Shown one piece after another: positions 11,223 to 64,000 of a DNA stretch of 64,000 nt. A program made the position numbers and the translations under genes. A model generated the notes under the pieces. The model did no database searches. It was given only the letters and a program-made list of their open reading frames with translations, and had not been told where the DNA came from. Within the stretch, counting starts at the first letter, position 1. Every line of letters starts with the position of its first letter. This stretch comes from Coriobacteriaceae bacterium (GTDB taxonomy: Bacteria > Actinomycetota > Coriobacteriia > Coriobacteriales > UMGS124), in the NCBI GenBank assembly GCA_019421015.1, contig JAHZGC010000007.1:23397-87396 (forward strand), written 5' to 3'.

Positions 11223-12062
11223 ATGGCCAGGTACGGCATGGCGATCGATACCGAGCACTGCACGGGATGCCAGACCTGCGTCGTGGCGTGCCAGATGGAG
11301 CATGCGCTGCGGCCCCAGGTGGCTTGGACCCGGGTCGACACCGTGGAATGGGGCCGCTGGCCCGACGGCGGCCGCCTGCACCTGCCCCATGGGTGCCTCC
11401 ACTGCGACGAACCGGCCTGCGTGGAGGTGTGCCCCACCGGCGCGAGCTTTGCGGGAGGCGGGGCAGCCTCGCTGGTCGACCACGAGCTGTGCATAGGATG
11501 CGGCGTGTGCGCGGCGGCGTGCCCCTACGGCGCCCGCACGATAAACCGCGCCGACCGCTGGTTCTTCGACGCCGCAGACCCGGCCCCCTACGAACGCGAC
11601 GGAACCCCCCTCGGCACGGCGGAGAAATGCACGCTGTGCGTCGAGCGACGCGAGGCGGGGCGCGACCCGGCGTGTGTGAGCAGCTGCCCCACGGGCGTGC
11701 GCGCCTTCGGCGACCTCGACGACCCGGCCGACCCCATCTGGGACTTCATAGCCGAGACCGGCGCCGAGCGGCTTGCGGGCACCGCCACCTACTACGCCCA
11801 CCCTACTTACGCGCGCGACGTCGACGTGGCCGAGAATATCCGCGCCTTGCGAAAGTCCCCGCAGGAAGCGCCGGTATCGGGGGGCCTGCGCACCGACCGC
11901 GCCAGCCCGGCCGTCATTGCGGCGGCGACCGTAGGGGGTGCCGCCGCCGTCGGGGCTATCGCGCTGGGCACCGTGCGGGCGCGCAGCAGGAAGGCGGCCG
12001 CGGAGGAACCGAGAGGTGCGGGCGGCCCGGAAGCCCCGAAGGCGGGGCGGCGCGATGTTTAG
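11223..12062 (+). CDS. Second 4Fe-4S ferredoxin subunit (NrfC/HybA-like) with a C-terminal transmembrane anchor
   Basis: Paralog of 7451..8101 (MARYGMAIDTEHCTGCQTCVVAC..., four Cys clusters) plus a C-terminal hydrophobic helix (AVIAAATVGGAAAVGAIALGTV). It overlaps the next gene by 8 nt (ATGTTTAG). Confidence 0.8.
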   Translation: MARYGMAIDTEHCTGCQTCVVACQMEHALRPQVAWTRVDTVEWGRWPDGGRLHLPHGCLHCDEPACVEVCPTGASFAGGGAASLVDHELCIGCGVCAAACPYGARTINRADRWFFDAADPAPYERDGTPLGTAEKCTLCVERREAGRDPACVSSCPTGVRAFGDLDDPADPIWDFIAETGAERLAGTATYYAHPTYARDVDVAENIRALRKSPQEAPVSGGLRTDRASPAVIAAATVGGAAAVGAIALGTVRARSRKAAAEEPRGAGGPEAPKAGRRDV

Positions 12063-13077
12063 CGAGCTCGTGACGTGGTACCTCTTTCTGGGGGGAGCAG
12101 GGGCCGCCCTAGCCGCCCTTCTCTCCCTCTCTGACCTTCTATATGGCTGCAGAACCCGGCTCGCCGCGTTGCGCGGGGGCTCACGTACGCCCAGTACGCA
12201 TCGCCCCCGCGTGCCTTGCGAGCCGGAACCTGCCTTTGGCGGGGGCTGCAGAACCCGGCTCGCCGCGTTGCGCGGGGGCTCACGTACGCCCAGTACGCAT
12301 CTTGGCGTGCTTGCGTGGACCGACGGGCTTTCGCGCAAACTGTTCGCGCGGGGGTATGCGGCGGCGGGGATCGCGCTGCTGCTGGGGGTTCTGTGCCTGC
12401 TGGTCGACCTGGGGCGCCCCGAACGCTTCTACTACGTGTTCCTGCGGCCCACCGCCTCGATTCTCACGTTCGGGTCGTTCGTGCTGGGCGCCACGCTGTG
12501 CTGCGCGGTCGCGCTCGGCACCGTCGCGCTGGGGAACCTCTCCCGCGTGCCCCGGCCCCTGGTGCGCGCCGTCGAGGTCCTGTGCGTCGTCTGCGGCACA
12601 GCGACGGCCGTCTACACAGGCGCCCTGCTCGCCGCCATGGCGCAAGCGAACCCCACCTGGAACGCCGCGCTGCCGTTCTTGTTTGCCTTCTCGTCGTTCT
12701 CGGTGGGATGCGCAGGAGCACTGGCCTGCCTTCTTCCTTTTGAGAACGCCCCGGCCGCCGTGGTGCGTGCCTTTGCCCACATCGACCTGGCCTGCATAGG
12801 CCTGGAAGCCCTTGCCCTACTCACCTACCTGGCGCTGGCCTGCGTCGACGCGGGTTCGGTCTCCCGAGCGGCCCTGCTCCTCTGGGGAGAAGGCCGGTGG
12901 AGTGGCTGGGCCGTCTTCGCGGTATGCGCCCTGGGGGTGCCCCCGATCCTGGAGGTGTTCTCCTTACACCACGACCAGTCCCTCCCCCTCGCCTGGTCGC
13001 TGGTGTTTGTGGCCGTCGGCGGATTTTTCTTGCGGGCGTGCGTGGTGGGCGCGCCGGCAGTCTGGGGAGTAGGCTAG
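12055..13077 (+). CDS. NrfD/PsrC-like polytopic membrane quinol-interaction subunit carrying an in-frame tandem repeat insertion
   Basis: ATG at 12055. TM1 is WYLFLGGAGAALAAL, then LVDLGRPERFYYVF and further TM helices, as in the NrfD family. Between TM1 and TM2 lie ~66 codons encoded by two family A repeat units (GCRTRLAALRGGSRTPSTH appears twice). Confidence 0.7.
   Translation: MFSELVTWYLFLGGAGAALAALLSLSDLLYGCRTRLAALRGGSRTPSTHRPRVPCEPEPAFGGGCRTRLAALRGGSRTPSTHLGVLAWTDGLSRKLFARGYAAAGIALLLGVLCLLVDLGRPERFYYVFLRPTASILTFGSFVLGATLCCAVALGTVALGNLSRVPRPLVRAVEVLCVVCGTATAVYTGALLAAMAQANPTWNAALPFLFAFSSFSVGCAGALACLLPFENAPAAVVRAFAHIDLACIGLEALALLTYLALACVDAGSVSRAALLLWGEGRWSGWAVFAVCALGVPPILEVFSLHHDQSLPLAWSLVFVAVGGFFLRACVVGAPAVWGVG
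12145..12330. repeat. Family A hairpin repeat, two tandem units inside the NrfD-like CDS
   Basis: 12145-12202 and 12244-12301 are an exact 58-bp direct repeat, checked base by base, with a 99-bp period. Unit 1 is a full hairpin (CCGGCTCGC:GCGAGCCGG, GCGGGGGC:GCCCCCGC, CGTAC-N5-GTACG); the 3' arm of unit 2 is degenerate. Confidence 0.8.
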
Positions 13078-18015: not shown

Positions 18016-18053
18016 CGGCGGCCCCGCCAGCGAACATGCTGGCGGGGCCGCCG
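18016..18053. terminator. Strong GC hairpin terminator between convergent genes
   Basis: CGGCGGCCCCGCCAGC (18016-18031) pairs with GCTGGCGGGGCCGCCG (18038-18053): a 16-bp perfect stem with a 6-nt loop. Confidence 0.6.
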
Positions 18054-29295: not shown

Positions 29296-29375
29296 ACAAC
29301 TGCGCCCCAACGGCACACCTATGCCCAAAAGCAACCGGATACGCATCGCACCCGCACGCCTTGCGGCCGAGGCCC
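29296..29375. repeat. Degenerate family A repeat copy
   Basis: GATACGCATCGCACCCGCACGCCTTGCGGCCGAGG (29338-29372) matches the family A 3' arm (GTACGCATCGCCCCCGCGTGCCTTGCGAGCCGG). The upstream GGCACACCTATGCC resembles the apical GGCTCACGTACGCC, but the stems are no longer complementary. Confidence 0.4.
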
Positions 29376-29528
29376 GCTTCAGGGGCCAACCAGCCAGGCA
29401 GGGCTGTGGTGGACAGAACCGCGGCTTTCTCGACAGATCCGGGAGTTCGTACCACCCCGGCCAACACCACCCGAGTGGAGCCCAGGACCCAGAAACCCCC
29501 TCGGACTCGCGCTCCCCTCCCCCATCGT

Positions 29529-31908: not shown

Positions 31909-33772
31909 CGTCGCCTCCCGTGCGTCGCAGGTACAGCTCCCAAAGCGCCGCGACCGTCACCGGGCGGCCGCGGTCGTTCAGGACGTGGTCGGCCGCCAGC
32001 CCGTCGGTGTAGTCGGCCAGCGGATAGACCCCCGCCCCGCCGTCGCGGCCAAGGTGCATCACCGTCGGCACCAGCTCGACGTCGGCGACGCGGGCCTCCC
32101 CGTCGCCGCCGCGCTCGAGCACGAGGCGGGCACAGACCCCCAGCATGCAGGCAAGGTCGTCTTGGACCGCCGCAAAGTTGCCGAGGCCCCAGGCCACGGC
32201 GCACGTCCGTCCGTCAGAACACGCCAGGCGCTCCCACCCCAGGGCCTCGTGGCCGTGGGAGCACAGCACGGCGTCGGCACCGGCGTCGGCCAGGCGCTGC
32301 ACCACCGCCCGCTCAGCCTGCGAGGGGGCGTCGCCGTACTCCTGCCCGATGTGCAGGAAGCACGCCACGAGGTCGACGTCGTCACAGGCCCGAGCGGCCT
32401 CAACCTGGGCGGCGAGCCTTTCGAGGCGCGCCGACGCCAAGGAGGCGTCCTGTTCCCCGGCCTCCGGCACCGCCGCCCCCAGGGCCTCCGCCCCCAAAGA
32501 GGCCACCTCGTAGGCAGACCCCTCGGGCAGCGTGCGGCCGTTCGTTCCATAGGTGGCGTCGAACAACGCGAGCCTGAACCCCCGCACCTCCACCACCGTG
32601 GGCCCGAAAGGTCCGTCGCCCTCGCCGTCGTCGCCCTCGCCGCCCGCAGCGGCATTCCCGCCCGCGCCCGGGACCTGCCGGACGCCGAGCAGCTCCACAT
32701 CGGGACGGCCCTCCCAAAAGGCCAGCGTGTCGGCCAACCCCCGTTCACCGCGGTCGAGTATGTGGTTGCTGGCGCCGAGCACGACGTCGAAGCCCGCCTC
32801 GGCCAGCGCGTCGCCCAGCGCCCAGGGCGTGCCGAAGTACGGGTAGCCGCCGTAGAGCGCCGGGTCGCTCACAAAGGGGGTCTCCTGCCCCACGACCGCC
32901 AGGTCGGCCTCGGCCACCAGCCCTACAACCGGTGCAAACAACGGGCCAAAGTCGAACCCGCCCTCGCCGTCGCGCGCGGCCGCAAGCAAGGCCTCGTGGC
33001 CGATGACGTCTCCAGCTGCGAGCACCGTGGCCCGTTCCACCGGGGTTGCCGCCCCCTCGGCCGCAGCCGCAGAGTCGTCCTCGAGCACAAAGCCCCAGCT
33101 GCCCCAGCGCCACCGGGTCTGCACGCCGCGACGATCGGTCAGGACGAGCGCGCCGCCGGCATCGACGTCCATGGCCGCGATCTCGACCCCCGTCTGCGAC
33201 GACATCCAGCGAGGGCGCAGCTCGCCGCCCTGCCAGCCAAGCACAAAGATGTGCTGGGTGAACTCCTCGCCGTCCTCGGGCTCCTCGACCCAGAACGGCC
33301 GCGAGCTCCCAAAGTTCGCCGCCCGCCATACCAGCAGGACCACCTCGGGCAGCCCGTCTCCGTCGAGGTCGGTCACCCGGCCGTCGCTCACCAGCCACTC
33401 GTCGGGAGAGGAGAAGACCGGCTCGGTCCCCTCGCCCCCCGCCGCCCATAGCTCGAAACGACCGCCGCCCACGAGGACGCCGTCGGGCACACCGTCGCCG
33501 GTAACGTCGGCCTTGTAGACGCGCGCATGCCAGGTCGCCCATGCGGGCGGGGCAACCCACAGGTCGCCCGCGTCCTCGGAGGCAGCGGCCGCCCGCGCAA
33601 AGGCCGCGGAACCCGAGGACCCATCCCCCGCGTCGCCGACATCCACCAACCCCGGGGGGTTCTCCCCCACGAGGGTGCCGACGCCCGCAAGGGCCATCGT
33701 CAGTGCGGCGCTTAGAGCAATCCGCAAAATTGCTGGACAAGGCGCGCGAAGGCGCGGCGTGCTGAGGCACAT
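31898..33772 (-). CDS. Secreted protein: N-terminal FG-GAP/VCBS-like repeats plus CapA (PGA_cap) metallophosphatase-like domain
   Basis: Has DxDxDG loops (DVTGDGVPDGVL, VTDLDGDGLPEVVLL) followed by CapA-family motifs (VLAAGDVIGH..., FGTPWALGDAL..AGFDVVLGASNHILD, HIGQEY, VLCSHGHE). The start is uncertain: ATG at 33772 lies inside a family A repeat, and the alternative is ATG at 33697. The 1109-aa ORF in the track is an overlap artefact. Confidence 0.65.
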   Translation of the reverse strand: MCLSTPRLRAPCPAILRIALSAALTMALAGVGTLVGENPPGLVDVGDAGDGSSGSAAFARAAAASEDAGDLWVAPPAWATWHARVYKADVTGDGVPDGVLVGGGRFELWAAGGEGTEPVFSSPDEWLVSDGRVTDLDGDGLPEVVLLVWRAANFGSSRPFWVEEPEDGEEFTQHIFVLGWQGGELRPRWMSSQTGVEIAAMDVDAGGALVLTDRRGVQTRWRWGSWGFVLEDDSAAAAEGAATPVERATVLAAGDVIGHEALLAAARDGEGGFDFGPLFAPVVGLVAEADLAVVGQETPFVSDPALYGGYPYFGTPWALGDALAEAGFDVVLGASNHILDRGERGLADTLAFWEGRPDVELLGVRQVPGAGGNAAAGGEGDDGEGDGPFGPTVVEVRGFRLALFDATYGTNGRTLPEGSAYEVASLGAEALGAAVPEAGEQDASLASARLERLAAQVEAARACDDVDLVACFLHIGQEYGDAPSQAERAVVQRLADAGADAVLCSHGHEALGWERLACSDGRTCAVAWGLGNFAAVQDDLACMLGVCARLVLERGGDGEARVADVELVPTVMHLGRDGGAGVYPLADYTDGLAADHVLNDRGRPVTVAALWELYLRRTGGDDGR

Positions 33773-33817
33773 GAGCCCGAGCGCAACGAAGTCCAGCGTT
33801 TTTATGGATTGCTCTAG
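33711..33817. repeat. Family A hairpin repeat, long (107-nt) variant
   Basis: Outer stem TAGAGCAATCC:GGATTGCTCTA, stem GCTGGAC:GTCCAGC, bulge AAGGC, apex GTGC-N4-GCAC, and the conserved CACATGAGCCCGAGCGCAACG shared with 63593-63698. Its terminal CTAG contains the DUF3160 stop codon. Confidence 0.7.
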
Positions 33818-36096
33818 TAGAAGTCGCGCCAGCATAGCGAGAAGTCGTCGGTCCAGCTCACGGGCGCGACCTGAGGCCTGCCAAAGGTCTCGGAGTCCAT
33901 GTTGTCCATGCCGAGCAGGCGCAGCCACGCGGCGTCGGTCAGGCGGTCGCCCAGGGGCCAGGGGAACTCGTAGTAGCTGTAGACCGAGCCGCTGGCCAGG
34001 CGCAGCGACCCCTCGACGGGCACCACGGCATAGATCGTGGACACCTCGCCGGTACCCACCTCGAGCACCTGGCCGTTGGGGTCGGAGGCGACGTCGGCCA
34101 CGATGGCCGAGGGGAACTCGAAGGTCGTGAGGTACTCCCCTTCGGGCACCTCGTCTTTGTGGACCTCCTGCCAGAAGTGCTCGATCTGCACGCCGAAGCT
34201 GCGGATCAGCTCGAACTCGTCGTCGGTCGGCAGCTCGTTGGCCAGCTCCTTGCGCGCAATCACCTCGAGCCGGGTCGCCAGCTCCTGCAAGATCCCCAGG
34301 TTCTGGGCGTCGGTCTCGCCGAGCAGGCCGTAGCCCGCAAGGCCCGCGGCCGTGGCCTCCACCAAAGACGCGAGGCGCGCGAACACCTCGGGCTCGGGCT
34401 CCACGTAGCCGCGGTCGTCGCGCGCCTCGACGCCGGCGCCGCCGCCCTCGGCCATCATCTGCTTGGCATAGAGGATCGTGTCGTGCTTGAGCTCGGCAAA
34501 GCTGCCGAGGAACGACTGCAGGTCCTTGCGGGCCCAGGCGTCGCCCTGCATGAAGGGCGGGTAGCCCTCGCCGCGGGCCAGCGCGAGCGGGCGCAGCATG
34601 AGGAGCCACTGGCTGTAGAGGCTCGCGAGCCAGGTGCTTGCGGGGGCGTCGGCCACCTGGGCGCGCAGGGCCTCCATCTGCTCGGGGTAGCCGGCGTAGG
34701 CGGTGGCCCCCAGGCCCTCGAGCAAGGCCAGCGCGGCGTCGGAGCCAAAGGCCGCGGGCACGTCGAGGCCGTTGGGCAGCAGGCGCTTGTCGCCCGCGGG
34801 GTTCTCGGCCACGCGGTTGTAGGTGAGCTGCGTGAAGATCGACTCGTCGAGCGAGAAGCGCTGGCCCATGACCCTGAAGCCCTTGCCCTCGTCGAGGTGG
34901 TCGACCTCGGTCCCCACATCGACCACGGGGATCGAGTTGATGCGCGGCGCGGGCAGCTCGGCCGTGAGCCGGTGGAACACGTCCCAGGCTGCGGTATTCG
35001 CGGCAAGGTCTGCGGTCTGGGGCACACCGCCGTAGGCCTCGCCGAGCAGGGCGCGGTACTCGTAGTAGCCGTTGTCGTCGCTGGCACCGGCAAAGAAGCC
35101 CGTGATCGTGTAGACGGCCGACCACAGGTCGAGCGCCTGGGCGTCCTGGGCCAGGGCCAGCGTGACGAGCAGCGCACCGCGGTCCAGGTCCTCGTCCTTC
35201 TGTGCAAAGTTGCGCCGCCCGTACCACATCATCGCGCGGAAGTATGCCTCGAGGTCGGGGTTGCCCTCGTAGTAGCCGCGCGGCGCGTACTGGCTGTAGT
35301 CCTCGTCGCCGCCGAAGAGAGGCGACGCCGCGATGCCGCCGGCCCCCATGACCAGGTCGAGCTCGGCCTGGACCTGCTCCTGCACCTCGGGCGGCACGGG
35401 TCCGTCAGCACCCATGAGCTGCGATGCCACGGCGAAGAAGCCCGCGTTGCGCCGGGCCGCCTGCTCCCACTCGGTGCCGCGCAGGACCTCGAGCTGGGCC
35501 TCGCTGGCCTGGAGGAGAAGCCCCGCGAGGTTGCGCACCATCGCGGAGAGGTAGCCGCGCTCGGTATTGCGCAGCAAGAAGGCAAAGTAGAGGTGGTAGG
35601 TGTGGGTCATGGCGTCGACGGTCACGAAGTTCGGCACCAGGTTGTAGCGGTTCTGCTCAAAGACCTCGAAGAACTCGCGGCCGGTCTCGCGCATGATAAG
35701 AAAGCCGTTGCGCCGCAGGCAGTCGAGCTGCGCGTCGTTGAGGTAGAAGGCGTCCATGTTGATGACGTTCGAGAAGTCATCGGCCACCGTGTAGGGCTCC
35801 ACGGCCGGGCTCACCGGGTCGTAGGCCCTGTCGGCGATGGACTGCAGCAGCGACGGGCGCCCGGAAGGCGCGGCGGCAGGGGCGGCCGGAGCGCTCTCGG
35901 ACCCCTCGGCAGACTTGAGCAGCTCCTGCATGTAGGCGCCCAGGTCGCGCAGGGCCGAGGCCTCGGCTTTGGCGGGGGCCGCCGCCAAGCCAGCAACGGC
36001 CGCGGCGGAGAGGCCCGCGAAGGCGCGACGGCTTAGGGGGCGGCGGCCGCAGGGCCCTTCGTCGGGTGTGCCGGGAACGACGGACGTGTGGGCCAT
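33814..36096 (-). CDS. DUF3160-family secreted protein (Tat/Sec signal)
   Basis: 760 aa with the signal LSRRAFAGLSAAAVAGLAAAPAKA. The motifs (FVTVDAMTHTYHLYF, YAPRGYYEGNPDLEAYFRAMMWYGR) match my recollection of the DUF3160 family. Confidence 0.7.
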   Translation of the reverse strand: MAHTSVVPGTPDEGPCGRRPLSRRAFAGLSAAAVAGLAAAPAKAEASALRDLGAYMQELLKSAEGSESAPAAPAAAPSGRPSLLQSIADRAYDPVSPAVEPYTVADDFSNVINMDAFYLNDAQLDCLRRNGFLIMRETGREFFEVFEQNRYNLVPNFVTVDAMTHTYHLYFAFLLRNTERGYLSAMVRNLAGLLLQASEAQLEVLRGTEWEQAARRNAGFFAVASQLMGADGPVPPEVQEQVQAELDLVMGAGGIAASPLFGGDEDYSQYAPRGYYEGNPDLEAYFRAMMWYGRRNFAQKDEDLDRGALLVTLALAQDAQALDLWSAVYTITGFFAGASDDNGYYEYRALLGEAYGGVPQTADLAANTAAWDVFHRLTAELPAPRINSIPVVDVGTEVDHLDEGKGFRVMGQRFSLDESIFTQLTYNRVAENPAGDKRLLPNGLDVPAAFGSDAALALLEGLGATAYAGYPEQMEALRAQVADAPASTWLASLYSQWLLMLRPLALARGEGYPPFMQGDAWARKDLQSFLGSFAELKHDTILYAKQMMAEGGGAGVEARDDRGYVEPEPEVFARLASLVEATAAGLAGYGLLGETDAQNLGILQELATRLEVIARKELANELPTDDEFELIRSFGVQIEHFWQEVHKDEVPEGEYLTTFEFPSAIVADVASDPNGQVLEVGTGEVSTIYAVVPVEGSLRLASGSVYSYYEFPWPLGDRLTDAAWLRLLGMDNMDSETFGRPQVAPVSWTDDFSLCWRDFY

Positions 36097-38133: not shown

Positions 38134-38182
38134 CCAAAAACACCCCGGCTCGCAAGCCCTAACGGGCCGCGAGCCGGGGTGT
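38134..38182 (-). terminator. Rho-independent terminator of the 43209-38224 reductase operon
   Basis: ACACCCCGGCTCGC (38140-38153) pairs with GCGAGCCGGGGTGT (38169-38182). On the minus strand the stem is followed by a T5 run. Confidence 0.6.
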
Positions 38183-38223
38183 CTTGCGTCGCAGGGCCCC
38201 ATGCGAAGCCCCAAAGCGCTTCT

Positions 38224-39132: not shown

Positions 39133-39135
39133 GGC

Positions 39136-39807
39136 CTAGCTCAGCCACTCGCGGTCGCGGCGGTCGCCGTAGCCGTGGCGCAGGATGTAGTAGAGCTGCG
39201 GGCCGTTGCCCGCGTCGGGCAGCTGGTGCAGGTCGGTGTCCTCGAAGGGCTCCACGGCGTCGCGGATCTTGCGGCGCACGGCCTGCTGCTCCTCGTAGGT
39301 GCCGGCCGCCTCGGGGCGCCAGGGGCCCTCGAAGGAGTCGATACCCTCGTCGAGGTCGCCGAAGAAGCGGGCGCGGCCGCCGCACTGGGCCACGCAGGCG
39401 GGGAGCTCGCCCTTGTCGACGAGCTGCTCGCACAGCGTGCACTTCTCCACGACGTTGAGCTCCTCGTTGAGGTAGCGCACGCCGTAGGGGCAGGCGCTCA
39501 CGCAGGCCTGGCAGCCGATGCAGGCCTCCTTGTCGATCTGCACGGTGCCGTTGTCCATCTTGACGCTCGCACCCGTGGGGCACACGGTGGTGCACTCGGG
39601 GGTGGCGCAGTGCTGGCACTGCATCGGCAGGAAATACATGTCGACGTCGGGGAACTGGGCGCCCTCGTACTTGGGCGTGGGGCCCACGCGCATGGAGCGG
39701 ATCCAGTAGTTGCCCACGGGCACGCCGTTGGCGGCCTTGCAGTGGACCGTACAGGCGAGGCAGCCGGTGCAGCGGTTCAGGTCGGTGATGATCGCATACT
39801 GAGACAT
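39136..39807 (-). CDS. 4Fe-4S ferredoxin-type subunit (DmsB-like)
   Basis: Starts MSQYAIITDLNRCTGCLACTVHC and has four Cys clusters (CQHCATPEC, CIGCQACVSAC, CTLC...C). Confidence 0.9.
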   Translation of the reverse strand: MSQYAIITDLNRCTGCLACTVHCKAANGVPVGNYWIRSMRVGPTPKYEGAQFPDVDMYFLPMQCQHCATPECTTVCPTGASVKMDNGTVQIDKEACIGCQACVSACPYGVRYLNEELNVVEKCTLCEQLVDKGELPACVAQCGGRARFFGDLDEGIDSFEGPWRPEAAGTYEEQQAVRRKIRDAVEPFEDTDLHQLPDAGNGPQLYYILRHGYGDRRDREWLS

Positions 39808-39810
39808 AGA

Positions 39811-42800
39811 CTACTCCTTGATGAGCGACTTGCTGGTCTGCAGGCCCTTGGCGTTGGCGTTGTAGTAGGCCATGCCCTCGACGCTCGGGTCGGCGGTGAG
39901 CCATTCCTTCAGACGCGGGTCGCTGGACTCCCAGATCACGGGCACGCCGTCGGGGTCGCAGGGAACCGGGTTGCCGAAGGGCGAGTTCTCGGCCGTCGCC
40001 TTGTACACCACCGTGGGGATGCCGCGGAACTGGGAGGCGCCGCAGATCCAGCACTGGGCGTACTTGTCGAGCACGCAGTTGATGTTGACGAGCTCAAAGC
40101 CGTGGCTCGCGGTGTCGACCTCGGGGAACCACCAGCCGTGGTTGGCGTTGACGGTGCCCTCCTTGATGCCGTAGTACAGGTCGATGACCTCGCGGACCTT
40201 GCCCCAGGGCGTCTCGATCCAGACCCAGTCGCCCTCTTCGATGCCCAGGCGCTCGGCATCGGCGGGGTTCATCTCGAGGCGCGGGTAGGGCCACAGCTCG
40301 CGGCACCAGGGGAGCTGGCGGTGCTCGGTGTGGAAGTAGACGGGCTGGCGGGCGCCGGTGGTCATGATGAAGGCGGCGTCGGGGTTGGCCGTCAGGGCCT
40401 CCTTATAGCCTTCCTTGTTGATCATGTGCTCGTTCTCGTCCATCTTGCCGGCGCAGTGCTGCACCTCGCCGATCTGGTCGACGAGGGAGGCGTCGAAGAA
40501 CTCGGGGTTGGAGACCTTGGAGTTCATCGGCTCGCGCCAGGTGGGGAACTTGTCCTCGTCGTCGATGTAGGACTCCATGATGGTGGACCAGATCTCGACC
40601 TTGGCGGTCGGGGTCATGAAGCCGGCCTTCTCGTCGACGGCGGGGTACAGGTTGTAGCCGCCCTCCTGACGACGGTAGCCCATCTCCCAGCGACGGTAGG
40701 TGCCCCAGCGCTCGGGGTGGTAGGTGCGGCAGTCGAACCAGCCCTCGTTCTGGAACTTCTCGGCGTACTCCGCGAAGGTCGGGCCCTCGGGGAACTCGGG
40801 GGTGTGCCAGGCGTCGCAGGCGGCCTTGAGCACGCGGGCCTCCTGCTCCTCATAGGTCACGTCACCGCCCATCTGGACGAACTTGGTGACGTCGAGGTTC
40901 AGCCACTCGTCATAGGCCGGGTCGGTGTTGTTGAAGGGCACGCCCATGGCCTGGTAGAGCAGGACCACGAAGACCGGGTCGAAGATCTGGTCGCCCTCGG
41001 GCATCTTGGCGCGCTGGCCGGCGCCGAAGAGGCCGCCTGCGCCCTGGGACACGCGGGTCGTGTTGACCTCGAGCCAGTGCAGGCAGGGGAACACGATGTC
41101 GGCGCAGCCGTTGTTGGGGCAGGACCACAGGTTGATGTCGACCCAGAAGTCCAGCTTGGTCAGGGCCTCCCAGGCCTCGGTCAGGTTGGCCTCGTTCATG
41201 AAGTCGCCCGACATGCAGACGCCGCCGTGGATCTGGTAGGGGGTGTCGATCTCGTTGATCGAGTCCCAGATGGTGGCCGCGTCGGCCCAGCGGTTCCAGT
41301 AGCGCAGCAGCGGGAAGCGGTCGGCGCTGATCTGCTTGGCGTTGCGCTCCCAGGTGGTCTTGGGGTTAGGCCACGCCGTGGAGGGACGGTAGTCGCCGCC
41401 CTTGCGCTCGGCGATCCAGTAGGCCTCCTCCTCGGTCGGCACCTTGTTGCCGTAGCGCTCGGCCAGGGGCGAGTCGTTGTCGATCAGGTACTGCACGAAG
41501 TCCTGGATCTCGGGAATCTGGTCCTTGATGGACTTGTCGCGGCCCGACCAGGTGATGGCGTCCGCGCCGTAGTCGGTCGAGAGCATCGTGGCGCGGCCGG
41601 GGCAGCCGTCGACCTCCGCCTTCGAGGAACCGCGGTTACCGGCGGGCTCGTCGGAGTTGCCCGTGATGCAGGCGATGATCTGCAGGGCGCGGGTGTTCTG
41701 CACGGCGTGGCCGGTCTGGTCGGGAGCGAGCTGGTAGTGGATGCCGCCGTTGCCCATGGCCGGGTCGATACGGGTGGTGTAGGCCTTCACCGCCTGCTCG
41801 ATGAGCTCGGCGGGAACCTCCGTGACCTCCTCGGCGTACTCGAGGGTGTAGGGAGCCAGGTGCTCGGCGAAGGCGTCCCACACGGTGCGGGCAACGTGCT
41901 TGGAGCCGTCCTTCCACGTGACCTCGACCTCGCCCGGGAAGAGCGACGGCAGCTTGGGCAGGCCCTTGGGGTTGCACTCCTCAGAGCCGTTCGGGAAGCG
42001 GTCGGCCTCGGTCTCAGGGTCGGCGAAGGTCGAGATGTCGGGCAGCCAGGCGTCGGCCACGAGCGGCTTGTAGGGGTGCTCCACCCACATGCCGGTGGTG
42101 GGGATGCGGTGCTCCTCGCCCTCCCACTGGCACTCCTCGGCGTCCCAGTAGGTCAGGCGCTCGTTGGCCTCGTCCCACACCATGAAGCGCTTGGGCGAGC
42201 CGTCCTCCTTGAGGTCGGCCTCGGTGAGCAGGCGGGTGCGCATGTGCATGCCGCCGTTCATCTCCATGAACCAGACGCCGTCGCCGGGCTCGCCCTCCTT
42301 CTCCTTGTCCTCGCACCACAGGAACGGGGCGTTGGTCCAGCGGCGCACAAAGGCGTCGTCATAGGCCTCGTTGTCGAGGATCCACTTGAGCCAGCTAAGA
42401 GACAGGCACAGGTCGGTGCCCACGCGCAGCGGCAGCCAGATGCTCGACTCCTTGCCGAGCGGCGTGAGGCGCGGGTCCACCAGGATGTGGCAGGCGGCGT
42501 GCTGGGCCACGTCGGTGGCGGCGCGGTTGTTGGTGTCGTAGTTGGAGTACTCGGGCGCGGTGCCCCACTGCACGTAGACCTTGGGCTCGGCCTCGACCTC
42601 CATCCACGGGGAGCCGATCTCGTCGGTCAGGATGCCGCCGAAGTGGCGCGGACCCTTGCAGATCTCATAGGCCAGGTGCGCGTTGGGGGTACCAAAGACC
42701 TGCTTGAGCGTGCCGTAGGGGGCCTGGGTCCAGACGCGCGAGGTGCCGCCCATGGCAAAGATGGACTCGCCGCCGTACTTGTCAACGATCTCGCCGAACT

Positions 42801-43209
42801 TCTCGCCCATGAGCTTGAAGCCCTCGGCAAGCGAGATGCGCACCCAGCCCGGGTCGTCCTCGCCCTTGGGGTTGGTGCGCTTCATGACGTACTTGAGGCG
42901 GTCGGGGTGGTACGCGGCCTGCATCGACGAGGCCGACTTGGAGCAGCAGTGGCCGCGGCCGTGGCTCGAGCTCTCGTCGCCCTCGACCTTCACGACTTTG
43001 CCGTCCTCCACGGTGACCCAGACGCCGCACTCGACCTTGCCGCAGGCGCGGCAGCACGAGCGGATGCGCTTGACCTCGCCGGCGGTCTCGTCCTCGCCCT
43101 CGGCCAGGGCCTGCAGGGGCTTGGTGACACTGGGGGTCAGGGCAGCGGCTGCCGCGGTGACGGCGGCGGCCTTGACGAAGTTACGACGGCTCATCGTAAG
43201 CTTGGCCAT
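39811..43209 (-). CDS. Large (1132 aa) Tat-exported bis-MGD molybdopterin oxidoreductase catalytic subunit
   Basis: ATG at 43209 is preceded by GGGAGGAGG. Has a Tat signal (TMSRRNFVKAAAVTAAAAAL) and an N-terminal Cys cluster (SCCRACGKVECGVWV...HCCSK). Molybdopterin oxidoreductase and molydop-binding domain patterns run throughout. It is ~50% longer than DmsA-type subunits. Confidence 0.9.
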   Translation of the reverse strand: MAKLTMSRRNFVKAAAVTAAAAALTPSVTKPLQALAEGEDETAGEVKRIRSCCRACGKVECGVWVTVEDGKVVKVEGDESSSHGRGHCCSKSASSMQAAYHPDRLKYVMKRTNPKGEDDPGWVRISLAEGFKLMGEKFGEIVDKYGGESIFAMGGTSRVWTQAPYGTLKQVFGTPNAHLAYEICKGPRHFGGILTDEIGSPWMEVEAEPKVYVQWGTAPEYSNYDTNNRAATDVAQHAACHILVDPRLTPLGKESSIWLPLRVGTDLCLSLSWLKWILDNEAYDDAFVRRWTNAPFLWCEDKEKEGEPGDGVWFMEMNGGMHMRTRLLTEADLKEDGSPKRFMVWDEANERLTYWDAEECQWEGEEHRIPTTGMWVEHPYKPLVADAWLPDISTFADPETEADRFPNGSEECNPKGLPKLPSLFPGEVEVTWKDGSKHVARTVWDAFAEHLAPYTLEYAEEVTEVPAELIEQAVKAYTTRIDPAMGNGGIHYQLAPDQTGHAVQNTRALQIIACITGNSDEPAGNRGSSKAEVDGCPGRATMLSTDYGADAITWSGRDKSIKDQIPEIQDFVQYLIDNDSPLAERYGNKVPTEEEAYWIAERKGGDYRPSTAWPNPKTTWERNAKQISADRFPLLRYWNRWADAATIWDSINEIDTPYQIHGGVCMSGDFMNEANLTEAWEALTKLDFWVDINLWSCPNNGCADIVFPCLHWLEVNTTRVSQGAGGLFGAGQRAKMPEGDQIFDPVFVVLLYQAMGVPFNNTDPAYDEWLNLDVTKFVQMGGDVTYEEQEARVLKAACDAWHTPEFPEGPTFAEYAEKFQNEGWFDCRTYHPERWGTYRRWEMGYRRQEGGYNLYPAVDEKAGFMTPTAKVEIWSTIMESYIDDEDKFPTWREPMNSKVSNPEFFDASLVDQIGEVQHCAGKMDENEHMINKEGYKEALTANPDAAFIMTTGARQPVYFHTEHRQLPWCRELWPYPRLEMNPADAERLGIEEGDWVWIETPWGKVREVIDLYYGIKEGTVNANHGWWFPEVDTASHGFELVNINCVLDKYAQCWICGASQFRGIPTVVYKATAENSPFGNPVPCDPDGVPVIWESSDPRLKEWLTADPSVEGMAYYNANAKGLQTSKSLIKE

Positions 43210-43772
43210 AGGTCCTCCTCCCTTTCTGGTGCACGGGGCACCGGTAACAACTCTCCTGTGGGTTGCCTCGTCGGCCGCTCGGCGCGGCGGACCCGTGCGC
43301 TCCCGCCGGATCCGGGTGCGGGGCGCAGGCCGCGGCATCGCGGGGCCTTGAGGCGATTCGAATGGTAAGCATGGACAAATGGTGCGGCTCATTTCGGCGG
43401 GCCTGTTTGGGGAGAGGCCCATCATCCCCTGCGGTGTAGCGGTGTGGATGAGTTAGCATTTATGCAGGTAGATATCGCATATAAAGGAGGTCTCGGGGGA
43501 GAATTAATCCCCTCGTATAACATATTGATATACTCTGACCCCTTGGTTTTTTGTCCATGGTTGAACGGGCGCACCGACCGCCGCGCAACCGATACGCCGC
43601 CGGGGATGAGGCTCCACCTCTCCCGACCCGTGGGAACCCCGTGGGGGTGATGGCGTCGGAACCCGGCTACCGGTACAGTGGGAACCGCCGGAACACAGGG
43701 TCCCGGCCGCACGCAACCGCAGGCGCCCCCGCACGGCGGCACGGCCCGCACCCATCGAAGGAGAGAGGCCCC

Positions 43773-49938: not shown

Positions 49939-50559
49939 CTACATCTGAGGCTCCTGCCAGGCGGCGGTGCGCAGTATGTAGGCAAACTGCGGGCCGTTGC
50001 CCTCATCGGGCAGCTGGTAGACCTGGTCCTCAGTGTAGGGCTGCACAAAGTCGCCCAAGGTCTCGCCGCGCGGGCCCTTGAAGGTCTCGATGCCCTCGTC
50101 AAGGTCGCCAAAGAAGCGGGCCATGCCGCAGCACTGGCTCACGCACTGGGGCAGCTCGCCCTGGCTGATCTTCTGCTCGCAGAGGGTGCACTTCTCCACG
50201 AAGCCGGCGTCCTCGTTCATGTAGCGCACGCCGTAGGGGCAGGCGTCGAGGCAGGCCTCGCAGCCGATGCAGGCCTCGTGGTCGACCTGGACGGTGCCGT
50301 CCTCAGCCTTGAACGAAGCGCCGGTGGGGCACACCTTGATGCACTCGGGGTCGGCGCAGTGCTGGCAGGAGACGTTGAGGAAGTACATCTCGACGTCGGG
50401 GTACTGGCCCGAGCCGCCCACCTTGGGGGTGGGGCCCACGCGCAGCACGCGGTTCCAGAAGCGGCCCACCGGCACGTCGTTGATCGCCTTGCAGGCCACG
50501 GTGCAGGCATGGCACCCCACACACCGATCGATGTCGGTGACGATTGAATAGTTAGCCAT
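49939..50559 (-). CDS. 4Fe-4S ferredoxin-type subunit (DmsB-like)
   Basis: Starts MANYSIVTDIDRCVGCHACTVAC and has four Cys clusters. It is a paralog of 39136..39807. Confidence 0.9.
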   Translation of the reverse strand: MANYSIVTDIDRCVGCHACTVACKAINDVPVGRFWNRVLRVGPTPKVGGSGQYPDVEMYFLNVSCQHCADPECIKVCPTGASFKAEDGTVQVDHEACIGCEACLDACPYGVRYMNEDAGFVEKCTLCEQKISQGELPQCVSQCCGMARFFGDLDEGIETFKGPRGETLGDFVQPYTEDQVYQLPDEGNGPQFAYILRTAAWQEPQM

Positions 50560-50595
50560 ACGTACGAACCTCCCTTACAGGATTCAATCTATAAA

Positions 50596-50772
50596 GCGGG
50601 TTCTCGGCCGCAAGGCGCCGGGAGGCGATGCGTACGCCTGGTACGTGAGCCTCCCGGGAACGTGGCGGCCGAGGTTCCGCAACTACAGCGGGTTCTGGCT
50701 CGCAAGGCGCGCAGGTGCGATGCGTACATCTGGTACGTGAGTACCTGCGCAACGCCGCGAGCCAGGTTCCGC
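50596..50772. repeat. Family A hairpin repeat, two tandem 85-nt units between the catalytic and FeS subunit genes
   Basis: The units span 50596-50680 and 50688-50772, a 92-nt period. Each forms GCGG/CCGC, a 9-bp stem, an 8-9-bp stem and the apex CGTAC-N5-GTACG. The stems differ between units but are compensated: CTCGGCCGC:GCGGCCGAG vs CTGGCTCGC:GCGAGCCAG, and CCGGGAGGC:GCCTCCCGG vs GCGCAGGT:ACCTGCGC. Confidence 0.8.
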
Positions 50773-50778
50773 AGCACG

Positions 50779-53700
50779 CTAGTCCACGTGGTAGATGCTG
50801 GTGCCCTCGCCGCCGGGGAGCCACGCCTTCAGGCGCGGGTCGTCGGCGGAGCAGATGATGGGCGTGCCGTCGTTGCCGCACGGCACGGGGTTGCCGAAGG
50901 GCGAGTTCTCGGCCGTGGCCTTGTAGATCTTGACCGGGTAGGTACGCACGTTGGCCGAGCCGTTGTACTTGTCCTGGCAGGTGCGGTCCACGAGGCAGTT
51001 GATGCACGAGAGCTCAAAGCCGCCGCCGGCCTGGTTGAGCTCGGGGTACCACCACTGGTGCTCGGCGTTGATGGTGCCGGGCTCGATGCCGTAGTAGATG
51101 TCGACGGTCTGGCGCACCTTGCCCCACGGGCTCTCGATCCACGCCCAGTCGCCCTGCTCGAGGCCGAGCTCCTCGGCGTCGACGGGGTTGATCTCCATGC
51201 GGGGCACGGGCCACAGCTCGCGGCACCAGGGCAGCTGACGGTGCTCGGAGTGGAAGTACACCGGGATGCGGCGGCCGGTGATGCAGGTGAAGGGGTACTC
51301 CTCGTAGGTCGCGGCGTCGGCCACGGGGCTGTGGGCAGGCTCCTGGTAGTAGGGCAGGGCCTCGCTCGTAAAGCCGGGGGCCAGTTCGGGGCCGTCCTCA
51401 CCCTCAGGGTAGACGCTCTCGATGGTGGTGCACCAGAACTCGTGCTTCATCGTGGGCGTCGGGAAGCCGGGAATGCCGATGGGCCCGCGGTAGGTCTGCT
51501 GGTGCATGCCGGTGCGGTAGGCCTGGCCGGTCTCGTAGCGGCGGAAGGTGCCCCACTCCTCGGGGACCTCCTCCTTCATGTTCCACCAGCCGTGCTCCTG
51601 GAAGGCGTCGCGCACCTCTTCCCAGCTGTTGTAGGGCACGATGCCGTCGCGGAACAGGGCGAGGTTCAGGGCCTCGATCTCGATGTCCTTGCCGCTGTTC
51701 TCGAGCCAGGGGTCGTCGCCGTCGAAGGCCGGCACGCCGAAGTACTTGGAGAGCTCCATGAAGTAGCGCGGGTCGCTCTTGCACTCGCCGGGAGGCTCCA
51801 CGGCGCGCACGCCGAGACCCCAGGCGCCCTGGGAGCCCTGGGACATGCGCCAGGTGTTCATCTCGAGCCAGTGGCAGACGGGCAAAAGGATGTCGGCCGC
51901 GCCCGAGGTGGGCGAGTGCCACAGGTTTGCCTCGAAGAGGAAGTCGAGCTTGTTCAGGGCCTCCCAGTTGTACTGGGCGTTGGCCATGTTCATGTGATCG
52001 CCCGAGCCGATCATGCCGCCGTGGATGTGGTAGGGGGCGTCGGGCTCCTGGTGCGCGGCCTCCATGACGGCGTTGCAGTCGGCCCAGACGTTGTACCAGT
52101 AGAGCAGCGGCATCTTGTCGTTGCCGCACATCTTCATCGAGAGCTCGGGGGCGGGCATGTAGGCAAAGGCCGCCATGGCGGGCAGCACCGCGCACATGTC
52201 GCCGGCGCCGGTCCAGCCGTTGGTGGCGCCGCGCTGGCCGCCGGGGGTGTCGATGGCGCCCACCATGGCGCAGGCGGCCATGATGGCGCGGCAGTTCTGG
52301 GTGGAGTTGCCGGCATGCTCGACGCCCAGGCCGTAGTTGATGCCGCCGTTGGGCAGGTCGGGGTCGACGCGGGTCGCCCAGGCCAGGCAGGCCTCCTCGA
52401 TCTTCTCGGCCGGCACACCGGTGACCTCGGCGGTCTTCTCGGGCGTCCACTCCTGGAGGTAGGCGCTCCAAAGGTCCCACACGGGGCGGCCAGTGTGGGT
52501 GGTGCCGTCCTTGAGCACGACCTCGAACTCGCCGGTCAGGGCCGGGTCGATCATCGGGTCAAAGTCGGAGAGGTCGGCGATCCAGCCCTTGGCCTTGGCG
52601 GCGTCGGCGCGCTGGCGCGAGGTGTCCTCCTCGCGGCCGGAGGTCTGGGGCTTCCACTCCTCGCCCTCCCAGTGGGCGTCCTCGGGATCGGCCTGCCAGT
52701 AGGTCCAGCGGCCGCCCAGCTCATCCCAGACCAGGTAGCGCTTGGGGTTGCCGTCGCCCTCGACCTCCCAGTCCACCATCGAGGGGTCGATGTCGGCCTC
52801 GGTGAGCAGGCGGCTCTTGTACTCGAAGGGGCCGCTCCCCTTCTCGTTGGTGCCGGTGTAGCCGGTAGGCTCCATGTCGGGCACCACGATGAACGGGGCG
52901 TTGGACCAGCGCTTGAGGAACTTGTAGTCGGCCAGGTCGTGCTCCAGGATCACGTGGCACCAGCCCAGGGCCAGGGCGGCGTCGGTGCCGGGGCGCAGGT
53001 TCAGCCAGTGGTCGGCCTTGGAACCCAGGTTGGTCTGGCGCGGGTCCACCGAGATGTAGGTGTCGGCCTCGGTGGCCACGTCGATGGCCATGCGGGCGGA
53101 GTCGTCGTAGTTGGACTGCGACTGCTCGGTGGCCCACTGCACGAACACGGGGGCGTGGGCGTCGACGTCGCTCCACGACCAGGCCTCCACGTTGTCGAGG
53201 GCGCTCGCAAAGTGGCGCGGGCCCTTGCAGACCTGGTAGGCGGCCACCACGTTGGGAGACCCGAAGAGCTCGGTGCACATGCCGGCGTCGGACTGCATGC
53301 ACCACTGACGGCCGGTGCCGCACCAGCTGAACAGCGACTCGGGGCCGTACTTCTCGCGGATCTGCATGATGTTGTCGGCGATGGTCTGGTAGGCCTCTTC
53401 CCAACCGATGCGCACCCAGCCGGGATCGTCGGAGCCCTTGGGGTTGGTGCGCTTAAGCGGGTAGCGCAGGCGGTCGGGGTGATAGGCGGCCTGCAGCGAC
53501 GCCTGACCCTTGGAGCAGTGGCTGCCCTGGGTGGCAAAGCAAGACTCGTCGCCCTCGGTGCGGATGACGCGGCCGTCCTTGACGTAAACCCACACGCCGC
53601 ACTCGGACTTGCCGCAGCCGCGGCAGCACGAGCGGATCTTCTTGACGCCCTCTTCGGCGGCGGCCGCCTGCTCGGCGGTCTCGGCAGCAAGCGCCATACG

Positions 53701-53787
53701 CTCGGAGCCGACGCCCACCGCAGCCGCAGCCGCCGTGGCGGCCATCAGCTTGGAGAACGTGCGACGTGAGCATGTCAAACTAGCCAT
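50779..53787 (-). CDS. Large (1002 aa) Tat-exported bis-MGD molybdopterin oxidoreductase catalytic subunit
   Basis: Has a Tat signal (TCSRRTFSKLMAATAAAAAV) and a Cys cluster (SCCRGCGKSECGVWV...HCSKG). It is a paralog of 39811..43209 over its whole length. Confidence 0.9.
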   Translation of the reverse strand: MASLTCSRRTFSKLMAATAAAAAVGVGSERMALAAETAEQAAAAEEGVKKIRSCCRGCGKSECGVWVYVKDGRVIRTEGDESCFATQGSHCSKGQASLQAAYHPDRLRYPLKRTNPKGSDDPGWVRIGWEEAYQTIADNIMQIREKYGPESLFSWCGTGRQWCMQSDAGMCTELFGSPNVVAAYQVCKGPRHFASALDNVEAWSWSDVDAHAPVFVQWATEQSQSNYDDSARMAIDVATEADTYISVDPRQTNLGSKADHWLNLRPGTDAALALGWCHVILEHDLADYKFLKRWSNAPFIVVPDMEPTGYTGTNEKGSGPFEYKSRLLTEADIDPSMVDWEVEGDGNPKRYLVWDELGGRWTYWQADPEDAHWEGEEWKPQTSGREEDTSRQRADAAKAKGWIADLSDFDPMIDPALTGEFEVVLKDGTTHTGRPVWDLWSAYLQEWTPEKTAEVTGVPAEKIEEACLAWATRVDPDLPNGGINYGLGVEHAGNSTQNCRAIMAACAMVGAIDTPGGQRGATNGWTGAGDMCAVLPAMAAFAYMPAPELSMKMCGNDKMPLLYWYNVWADCNAVMEAAHQEPDAPYHIHGGMIGSGDHMNMANAQYNWEALNKLDFLFEANLWHSPTSGAADILLPVCHWLEMNTWRMSQGSQGAWGLGVRAVEPPGECKSDPRYFMELSKYFGVPAFDGDDPWLENSGKDIEIEALNLALFRDGIVPYNSWEEVRDAFQEHGWWNMKEEVPEEWGTFRRYETGQAYRTGMHQQTYRGPIGIPGFPTPTMKHEFWCTTIESVYPEGEDGPELAPGFTSEALPYYQEPAHSPVADAATYEEYPFTCITGRRIPVYFHSEHRQLPWCRELWPVPRMEINPVDAEELGLEQGDWAWIESPWGKVRQTVDIYYGIEPGTINAEHQWWYPELNQAGGGFELSCINCLVDRTCQDKYNGSANVRTYPVKIYKATAENSPFGNPVPCGNDGTPIICSADDPRLKAWLPGGEGTSIYHVD

Positions 53788-63592: not shown

Positions 63593-63698
63593 CTAGAGCG
63601 TTTGAGGGAGCGTCTCGCAAGGCACGCGAGGGTGAAGCGTGCTTATTGCACATGAGCCCGAGCGCAACGCAGCGAGACGGTTCCTCAATACGCTCTAG
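63593..63698. repeat. Family A hairpin repeat, long (106-nt) variant
   Basis: Outer stems are CTAGAGCG:CGCTCTAG and TTGAGG:CCTCAA, with stem CGTCTCGC:GCGAGACG, bulge AAGGC, and apex GTGC-N5-GCAC. The core CACATGAGCCCGAGCGCAACG is identical to the one at 33768-33788. Its terminal CTAG contains the stop codon of the upstream ferredoxin-domain gene. Confidence 0.7.
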
Positions 63699-64000
63699 CG
63701 TTCGTAGAGTTGGTCGCAGTGGATAATCTTCCTCAGCGCCCCGATCATCGAATGGGCGCCTCCGCGGTCGTCGGTCACCGGCGGCAGCACCATGCGCTCC
63801 ACCACCGCGCCGGCGAGCACCTCGCGCGCCATGACGTCCTCGTGCAGCGTGAGGGCGTCGGTGGGGCAGACGTCGGTGCAGCAGCGGCACTTCACGCAGT
63901 CGCCCGGGATGTGCTCCACGCCGGCGTCCTCGCCGTCTGCGAACTTGCGGATGGCGCCGGTGGGGCAAAAGGTGGCGCACATGTAGCACGACTTGCAGGC
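63695..64000 (-). CDS. 3' part of a 4Fe-4S dicluster ferredoxin-domain protein (5' end outside the window)
   Basis: The frame is open to the window edge. It has two Cys cluster segments (CATFCPTGAI, CVKCRCCTDVCPTDAL). Confidence 0.6.
   Translation of the reverse strand, partial: ACKSCYMCATFCPTGAIRKFADGEDAGVEHIPGDCVKCRCCTDVCPTDALTLHEDVMAREVLAGAVVERMVLPPVTDDRGGAHSMIGALRKIIHCDQLYER

Follow-up and report, generated by a model that had tools for sequence, protein, structure and literature searches.

What does a pair of 85-nt hairpin-forming repeats do between two subunit genes of one operon, and how did it come to be there? The question is raised by a 64,000-nt stretch of a Coriobacteriaceae bacterium genome (contig JAHZGC010000007.1, positions 23,397–87,396; hereafter the window), in which two units of a repeat that we call Family A lie in the 219-nt gap between reductase genes 50779..53787 (− strand), encoding the molybdopterin catalytic subunit (1002 a.a.), and 49939..50559 (− strand), encoding the 4Fe-4S (FeS) subunit (206 a.a.). 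An initial annotation had placed these units at 50596–50680 and 50688–50772, positions that were borne out exactly on the + strand, and had considered either a DNA element resembling repetitive extragenic palindromes (REPs) and bacterial interspersed mosaic elements (BIMEs) or a structured messenger RNA (mRNA) module. [quoted passage not shown] The first of the two earlier ideas holds in kind, the units being inserted, multi-copy, strain-variable, and arranged in tandem arrays.

Insertion of Family A into Stop Codons

In homologous reductase operons (FeS subunits 71–72% identical, catalytic subunits 989–1003 a.a.), the spacer between the catalytic (A) and FeS (B) genes is 15 nt, e.g., TAA-GCGAGGAGGTAGACT-ATG. 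The A–B site in the window ends in the same way, with a relic TAA, then exactly 15 nt (50560–50574, GGGAGGTTCGTACGT), then the ATG, and it is preceded by a block that comprises, in the mRNA sense, G-CGTGCT, unit 2, TGTAGTT, unit 1, and TTTATAGATTGAATCCTG. The whole site reads GAC TA/G CGTGCT - unit - TGTAGTT - unit - TTTATAGATTGAATCCTG /TA/A GGGAGGTTCGTACGT ATG (slashes set off the flanking TA), and the first G of the block restores the TAG stop codon of the catalytic subunit gene. The simplest history would be that the 202-nt block entered the TA of the original TAA stop codon, with duplication of the TA. The outer boundaries recur in a divergent strain (L002), as TAG ... CTG TAA + 15 nt + ATG around one chimeric and one truncated unit, and a further contig (L120) has the insertion boundaries seen in the window, with several base differences within the block.

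The longer variants noted in the initial annotation near 33.7 and 63.6 kb are also present, each exactly 100 nt in length and flanked by TA in stop codons. The first is bordered by TA at 33713–33714 and 33815–33816, and the stop codon TAG of gene 33814..36096 (−) consists of TA plus the first base of the element; read from the sequence, a relic TAA, 14 nt, and the ATG of the next gene follow. The second is bordered by TA at 63594–63595 and 63696–63697 and overlaps the stop codon TAG of gene 63695..63982 (−). Beyond each of them comes a relic stop (TAA or TAG), and then a short spacer leading to the next gene in the same direction. The units are shown to be inserted DNA in otherwise tightly packed genes, with TA-flanked inserts in the TA of the upstream gene's stop codon at three window loci, where the initial G of the element rebuilds a TAG and the downstream ribosome-binding spacer stays intact. 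The initial annotation had overlooked this splitting of a stop codon, as well as the in-frame copy described below. A third molybdopterin reductase operon in the window (38224–43425, −; a 1204-a.a. catalytic subunit, an FeS subunit, and a third gene) has 3-nt gaps and no repeat, and serves as an internal control for the normal tight packing of such operons.

Six copies in the window are supported by a profile scan and a covariance model (Table 1), fewer than the seven or more units claimed initially, and they include one half unit that had gone unlisted. The proposed decayed copy at ~29296–29375 found no covariance-model support, with only a partial nhmmer match at 29340–29378 (E = 0.001). The apical pattern GATGCGTAC-N4-GGTACGTGAG, as searched, has four matches in the window, compared to 0.03 expected by chance. 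Units 1 and 2 are 74% identical across 90 nt, and the family as a whole comprises non-coding, multi-copy units of 85–125 nt, with dozens more copies in related genome assemblies.

Table 1. Family A units, inserted block, and host features with coordinates in the window.
Feature	Position	Strand	Details
Unit 1 (85 nt)	50596..50680	+	Unit closer to the FeS-subunit gene; covariance model 94.7 bits on +, 32.3 bits on −
Unit 2 (85 nt)	50688..50772	+	Unit closer to the catalytic-subunit stop codon; covariance model 94.5 bits
12.2 kb unit (85 nt)	12149..12233	−	Within nrfD-like gene, in frame; covariance model 96.7 bits
Half unit (apex and 3′ arm; 5′ arm decayed)	12248..12324	−	Within nrfD-like gene; covariance model 23.2 bits; nhmmer E = 1e-17
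Long variant, 100 nt	33715..33814	+	Terminal inverted repeat GAGCAATCC/GGATTGCTC; model core 33723–33806, 31.1 bits
Long variant, 100 nt	63596..63695	+	Ends GAGCGTTTGAGG/CCTCAATACGCTC; model core 63603–63687, 51.6 bits
Whole inserted block, 202 nt	50578..50779	−	TA flanks at 50780–50781 and 50576–50577
Relic TAA, putative original catalytic-subunit stop	50575..50577	−	Spacer length and comparison with L121–L126
NrfD-family membrane subunit gene	12055..13077	+	Pfam NrfD match resumes after the insert

Fold, Strand Asymmetry, and Covariation

The two strands of a unit do not fold equally well. On the + strand, units 1 and 2 reach −63.4 and −61.5 kcal/mol (z-scores of −7.0 and −7.2 against shuffles), compared to −53.9 and −49.9 kcal/mol on the complement, and in the five window copies folded, the strand GCGGGTTC...GGTTCCGC out-folds its complement by 7.4–11.6 kcal/mol. 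The covariance model scores the better-folding strand at ~95 bits and the complement at ~30 bits. This strand carries four invariant G·U pairs, which are A·C mismatches in the complement. The long imperfect hairpin of the initial annotation stands, but not its constant bulges as drawn, which are partly paired in a tighter fold: GATG/TGAG on the + strand forms U·G and G·U pairs enclosing a GA/A loop, GTTC/GGTT forms G·U, a U·U mismatch, U·G, and C–G, and GCG/CGC forms a 3-bp mini-helix within the AAGGC/AACG loop.

Compensated changes in the stems had been claimed from a few copies, and they persist in a covariance model and alignment of 47 distinct units from the window and related genome assemblies. 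In the refined structure of 34 pairs, 97.6% of the cells are paired and 17 of the pairs (230 cells) show change on both sides. The covariation score is 0.393; shuffles give 0.168 (none of 500 attains the observed value), and sliding the 3′ partners by 1–3 columns lowers it to no more than 0.072. Sporadic mismatches at variable pairs are about equally G·T (16) and A·C (10), and therefore add no further evidence of strand-specific purifying selection.

The stems are drawn from a limited set of alleles (e.g., CTCGTCCGC, CTGATGCGC, CTGGCCTGC, and CTCACGCGC), and many units, if still a minority, are chimeric, with outer arms that derive from two different alleles and do not pair; units therefore recombine with each other via the conserved core. 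Given this, the covariation counts reflect alleles as much as independent events. Of the earlier proposal of selection on the fold, the covariation itself stands, but such selection is only a partial account, as recombination between copies, and selection at the level of mobility, can produce a similar pattern.

Size variants were noted at ten loci (L021, L033, L035, L037, L061, L065, L077, L086, L103, and L107). Forms of 104, 105, and 125 nt have an additional 20-nt helix beside the apex, either on one side or on both, with the one-sided forms looking like recombinants at the tip, and forms of 115–117 nt carry a side hairpin (CACGGAGCGCCCTTTGCGACGAGTCCCGTG) in the 3′ arm.

Orientation with Respect to the Host Transcript

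Across the Coriobacteriales loci, the gene lying 3′ of a unit is encoded on the opposite strand 78 times and on the unit's own strand 10 times, with its stop codon usually 0–10 nt off the hairpin foot. Host genes on both DNA strands in the window follow the same rule, and orientation therefore follows transcription, not replication. A replication-driven orientation was considered separately and rejected, since GC skew was uninformative and both orientations occur within the window. Host mRNAs carry the complement of the better-folding strand throughout, and in this sense 66 of 77 units have a T-run of 3–5 within 1 nt of the hairpin; unit 2 has none. Units occur in head-to-tail tandem arrays with ~10–13 nt between successive units, and orthologous sites carry different arrays, including chimeric units, across strains and species. 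At one locus of a Coriobacteriales assembly (L066, 1413–1492), a single element makes up the entire gap between two convergent genes. Both stop codons fall inside the hairpin arms or at them, and one is part of a CTAG.

Such regularity could point to a cis-acting structured RNA module selected for its fold, i.e., a stabilizer between cistrons or in the 3′ UTR, a processing site, or an intrinsic terminator/attenuator setting the A:B subunit ratio. The units are always co-oriented with the host gene and abut its stop codon, most of them present a GC-rich hairpin followed by a U-run (the 66 units above), the covariation is supported, and an orthologous copy in a second species (described below) stays paired through two double changes; hairpin repeats with known effects on mRNA also exist, namely ERIC, the Correia elements, and BIMEs in attenuation. 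However, the transcript receives the weaker-folding strand, in which the conserved G·U pairs become A·C mismatches, and the sporadic mismatches do not favor either strand (16 vs. 10). The arrays turn over at orthologous sites and include chimeras with unpaired outer arms, one copy lies within a coding sequence, and homologous operons function with a 15-nt spacer and no module. A simple/consensus scan called no terminator at the A–B site, and the U-run is not common to the related families of other phyla. We consider this explanation unlikely, and the structured-mRNA module of the initial annotation is weak as the primary nature of the repeat, given that the strand with the conserved G·U pairs and purine loop is antisense to every host gene.

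The antisense position of the better-folding strand could instead mark a small RNA gene directed against the end of the neighboring gene, and purine-rich loops, tandem G·U pairs, and the G·A oppositions of the alphaproteobacterial families are all typical of structured RNA. Against this, no promoter-like site was found on that strand in the window (where the promoter scan called none) or in the Desulfobulbia elements, successive units in arrays leave only ~10 nt between them, and no terminator follows a unit on that strand; a small RNA gene is thus very improbable. An own promoter had been read by hand in the Desulfobulbia extension, where a −35/−10 pair matches 7 of 12 positions, and was discarded as the scan calls none.

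Integron attC sites, where a tyrosine recombinase reads the folded bottom strand and the adjacent genes are cassettes, likewise have a folding strand that is antisense to a gene with its stop codon extending into the site. Conservation of structure over sequence and the size range (57–141 nt) would fit. The host genes, however, are ordinary long operon genes rather than cassettes, units form tandem arrays free of genes and also occur within a coding sequence; Family A ends in GCGG...CCGC and lacks RYYYAAC/GTTRRRY boxes, and no integrase was found beyond ordinary XerC/D-like genes. This explanation is largely refuted by the genomic context, and we regard it as extremely improbable.

A Copy within an nrfD-Like Gene

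The copy placed by the initial annotation at 12145–12235 is present, but lies inside a coding sequence and not between genes. The repeat is in frame in the nrfD-like gene and encodes the peptide CRTRLAALRGGSRTPSTH twice, adding an insert of ~50 residues, compared to homologues of 288–315 a.a., in the loop after the first transmembrane helix. A second species (P0122, with a 70% identical protein; L127) has the same nrfD insertion, and its first unit is still paired via two double differences from the window, GCAG/CTGC in place of GCGG/CCGC and GGGGGC/GCCCCC in place of GGGGCC/GGCCCC. Both variants occur elsewhere in the family, and conversion from other copies may account for both double differences. 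The nrfD-like gene, third in its operon, overlaps the preceding FeS gene (11223–12062) by 8 nt (ATGTTTAG), which indicates putative translational coupling of the two.

The Apical Hairpin in Other Phyla

A scan for GATGCGTAC-N5-GTACGTGAG across one genome per species returned at least 108 stretches. A handful of these listed matches are chance occurrences in coding sequence, and the rest cap long hairpin repeats of quite different sequence. Among the matches listed, hosts include Coriobacteriales/Eggerthellaceae, two Desulfobulbia families, Pseudodesulfovibrio, Rhizomicrobium and other Alphaproteobacteria, Nevskia, a Myxococcota assembly, Family XIII and other Clostridia, Conexibacter, and a Yanofskybacteria assembly. 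The apex caps different hairpin repeats in at least six other phyla, which takes Family A beyond a routine new MITE.

Beyond the fixed pattern, in 60 distinct copies from outside Coriobacteriales, the closing pair is C–G in 57, and the next pair is G–C in 30, C–G in 23, A–U in 2, and G·U in 1; such pairing is seen in the correct register specifically. In nearly all of the families folded, it is again this strand that folds better, with a margin of up to ~25 kcal/mol; the L066 copy shows no difference between strands. The better-folding strand of the alphaproteobacterial families has G·A oppositions. In other phyla, a long open reading frame (ORF) ends 34–61 nt from the apex, often with its stop codon inside the terminal repeat, and by a hand count, ORFs of at least 100 a.a. 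ending within 65 nt of the apex have the same relative orientation in ~32 cases and the reverse in 7. TA flanks are seen in several families from Alphaproteobacteria. A Desulfobulbia family with the ends GTAAC..GTTAC is clearly a transposable element, five of its copies showing target duplications of 8 bp; no full-length insertion sequence (IS) with the Desulfobulbia terminal repeats was found among the loci.

The shared features suggest a bolder reading, which we put forward only tentatively and hold to be doubtful on balance, that the apical module C-GA-UGCGUAC-N5-GUACGUG-A-G is the strand-specific recognition element of a pan-bacterial superfamily of gene-end hairpin repeats, read by one conserved protein. 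The module comprises a closing C–G pair, a 2×1 purine loop, two tandem G·U pairs, and a 5-bp stem, and its hosts span Actinomycetota, Desulfobacterota, Alpha- and Gammaproteobacteria, Myxococcota, Bacillota, and a Patescibacteria genome. The outer shells around it differ, some being flanked by TA, those of one family having 8-bp duplications, and some forming tandem arrays. The reader of the apex might belong to a new kind of transposase or recombinase working on single strands, or else be a host factor with a role at the ends of genes; such a protein, if real, would account for the location at stop codons as well as for the strict orientation relative to transcription.

Other candidate identities were rejected, namely attC, SECIS-like recoding signals, k-turn/loop-E motifs, parS, and likeness to promoters of extracytoplasmic function (ECF) sigma factors, whose defining features misfit on a reading of the sequence. 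In Desulfobulbia (L025, L062, L078, L087, L097, L106, L110, and L114), we also noted a second hairpin module, AGCTGAG-TTGAGCAGCTTGTCTGCTCAA..., directly after CGCTTA(T), as if it targets this sequence. This small module is found in two places, at the terminus of the element that bears the apex and within the arm of that element, resulting in nested mosaic repeats.

Proposed Mobility and Maintenance of Family A

Under the favored reading of Family A as a mobile repeat, we infer that new loci would be seeded by a TA-targeting transposase of the IS630/Tc1 type acting in trans, and that arrays would then grow, shrink, and shuffle by recombination via the conserved core. Purifying selection would leave insertions at stop codons, presumably the main harmless TA in a genome of 67% G+C with TAG or TAA as 33 of the 35 stop codons counted in the window. 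The fixed orientation would depend on what the mRNA can bear or make use of: transcripts in the permitted orientation have the weaker hairpin and a run of 3–5 U, possibly acting as a leaky terminator or 3′-end protector between cistrons. The paired stems and constant unpaired bases would be kept because a protein recognizes the folded form, probably that of the better-folding strand, and the recurrence of the same apical hairpin in other phyla points the same way.

The 35 Pfam-supported genes in the window end in TAG (20), TAA (13), or TGA (2), and the Coriobacteriales loci of related assemblies (L011–L109) show TAA 66, TAG 63, and TGA 14. TGA is usually favored in high-GC bacteria; in the 67% G+C lineage of the window, it is the rare stop codon.

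Several observations weigh against the mobile-repeat reading. The terminal repeat of the 85-nt units is limited to GCGG/CCGC, with a variable left flank of 1 to 9 nt; clear terminal inverted repeats are found in the 100-nt long variants and in the families of other phyla. No RAYT, IS200-type, Y1, or other transposase is present in the window, in agreement with the initial annotation as regards RAYT and IS200-type enzymes. ORF clustering across the 108 listed loci gave housekeeping families only, with no recurring transposase, and neither the window, the neighborhoods of copies, nor these loci yielded a parent IS or transposase whose ends match. Empty sites for the 33.7 and 63.6 kb copies were sought in same-species contigs, all of which carry the element (L117–L119 in the case of the 63.6 kb element); with no true empty allele among them, the TA duplication is inferred from the relic stop codons. 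A bias toward TA-containing stop codons was looked for and rejected, as element-adjacent stop codons match the background proportions and TGA is rare genome-wide; the data would allow a TA preference but do not demonstrate it. On its own, a cut-and-paste DDE enzyme would not explain the strict orientation or the strand-asymmetric fold. For the possible terminator role, the uncalled terminator at the A–B site and the U-run missing from the families of other phyla count here as well.

The strand asymmetry raises the alternative of an element of REP/REPIN type that travels as single-stranded DNA. A Y1 (HUH) transposase, of either the RAYT or the IS200/IS605 kind, would move it and would read the imperfect hairpin together with its unpaired bases on one strand. 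The asymmetry is consistent in the window and in nearly every family of other phyla folded, the four invariant G·U (G·T) pairs lie on one strand, constant unpaired bases stand beside variable paired stems, the tandem clusters recall BIMEs, and gene 3′ ends are preferred. However, no Y1 transposase is present in the window and none recurs near copies. Moreover, TA repeats flank the inserts and a related family has 8-bp duplications, whereas mobilization by IS200/IS605 and of REPs leaves no target duplication. The units also measure 85–125 nt rather than 20–40 nt and start with GCGG, with no GTAG or CGTC tag at the hairpin foot, and their orientation tracks transcription and not one replication direction, both orientations occurring within 64 kb. 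We therefore regard a Y1-mobilized element as quite unlikely.

Comparison with Known Repeats

Searches of Rfam and of phage and plasmid collections returned no match to Family A. The window gave zero matches to Rfam at the curated gathering threshold and only chance-level matches to sX9 and nadA (E ≥ 0.3) at permissive settings, and Rfam found nothing beyond tRNA and RNase P in 17 loci from other phyla. The apex pattern had 0 matches in a phage/viral collection, and plasmid blastn with an alphaproteobacterial unit and the window pair gave no match. A literature search on Eggerthella REPs, stop-codon hairpin repeats, and the motif as text gave no description, and a paper on non-coding RNA in 50 genomes does not cover the family. 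The statement in the initial annotation that no described element of this kind was known in this lineage still holds for these sources.

The closest known behavior is that of the ERIC (or IRU) elements of Enterobacteriaceae, characterized in Yersinia, which are likewise co-transcribed miniature mobile elements, imperfect palindromes of ~100–127 bp that form long RNA hairpins. ERIC are co-transcribed with flanking genes, affect mRNA in an orientation-dependent manner, and form in-frame gene fusions. In 2005, De Gregorio et al. reportedly described a TA duplication for ERIC and a preferred orientation of copies overlapping or adjoining stop codons. Family A differs in having no sequence similarity to ERIC and residing in another phylum, in its head-to-tail arrays with linkers of 10–13 nt, and in covarying stems with fixed loops, whereas ERIC conserves terminal repeats; the apex of Family A is, moreover, common to repeat families of other phyla.

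REPs, BIMEs, and REPINs resemble Family A as extragenic palindromes with arrays at gene 3′ ends and strand-specific imperfect hairpins, and roles in mRNA stabilization and transcription attenuation have been proposed for them. REPs measure 20–40 nt and carry a GTAG or CGTC tag (PMC3733652). Within BIMEs, successive REPs alternate in orientation, and REPs are linked to a RAYT gene and show no target duplication. None of this was found for Family A, whose TA flanks suggest a target duplication.

The Correia elements (NEMIS) and RUP are, like Family A, small non-autonomous elements inserted at TA. RUP targets TA and is linked to IS630-Spn1, and Correia transcripts form hairpins that are processed by RNase III and affect neighboring mRNAs. 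Both have defined terminal inverted repeats and an identified or suspected parent IS, in contrast to the short units of Family A without defined ends. The Rickettsia palindromic elements (RPE), which lie in frame within conserved protein genes and are translated, parallel the 12.2 kb copies in the nrfD-like gene; RPE are, however, mostly intragenic, and Family A lies mostly at stop codons. With attC, Family A shares a fold conserved over sequence, fixed unpaired bases, and a folding strand antisense to a stop-overlapping gene, but has no cassette arrays, R/L boxes, or associated integron integrase.

Four traits are combined in Family A: insertion that rebuilds the stop codon, orientation locked to transcription, covarying stems with fixed loops, and an apex that recurs in several phyla. 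The MITE and REP models now known each account for only part of these, and a single apex-reading protein, if true, would be a new widespread player at bacterial gene ends. For annotation, the repeats lengthen gaps within operons, run into stop codons, and have once extended a membrane subunit by ~50 residues, and gene callers and operon predictors for gut Eggerthellaceae should account for them. Interest in gut Eggerthellaceae centers on their metabolism of drugs and diet through molybdenum and flavin reductases like these, and two 85-nt hairpins between subunit genes that are 15 nt apart in relatives constitute a natural experiment on subunit stoichiometry.

Genomic Context and Minor Observations

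The window has a G+C content of 67% and contains three molybdopterin reductase operons, several flavin reductases, and LuxR-type regulators. The FeS protein has an identical sequence on human-gut metagenome contigs, and its named homologues are from Eggerthellaceae; the host is an uncultured representative of the Eggerthellaceae in the human gut. Genes neighboring the repeats are ordinary, encoding reductase subunits, kinases, and helicases.

Four contigs from other sources (L039, L052, L082, labelled Acutalibacteraceae, and L104, labelled Alistipes onderdonkii) have 64–69% G+C and carry Coriobacteriales-type units and genes, and were probably mis-binned in those assemblies. Two GC-rich palindromes in the window, at 18016–18053 (84% G+C) and 38138–38184 (70% G+C), match the family model weakly on both strands (E of about 0.02–0.04); these are probably hairpins unrelated to Family A, and perhaps terminators.

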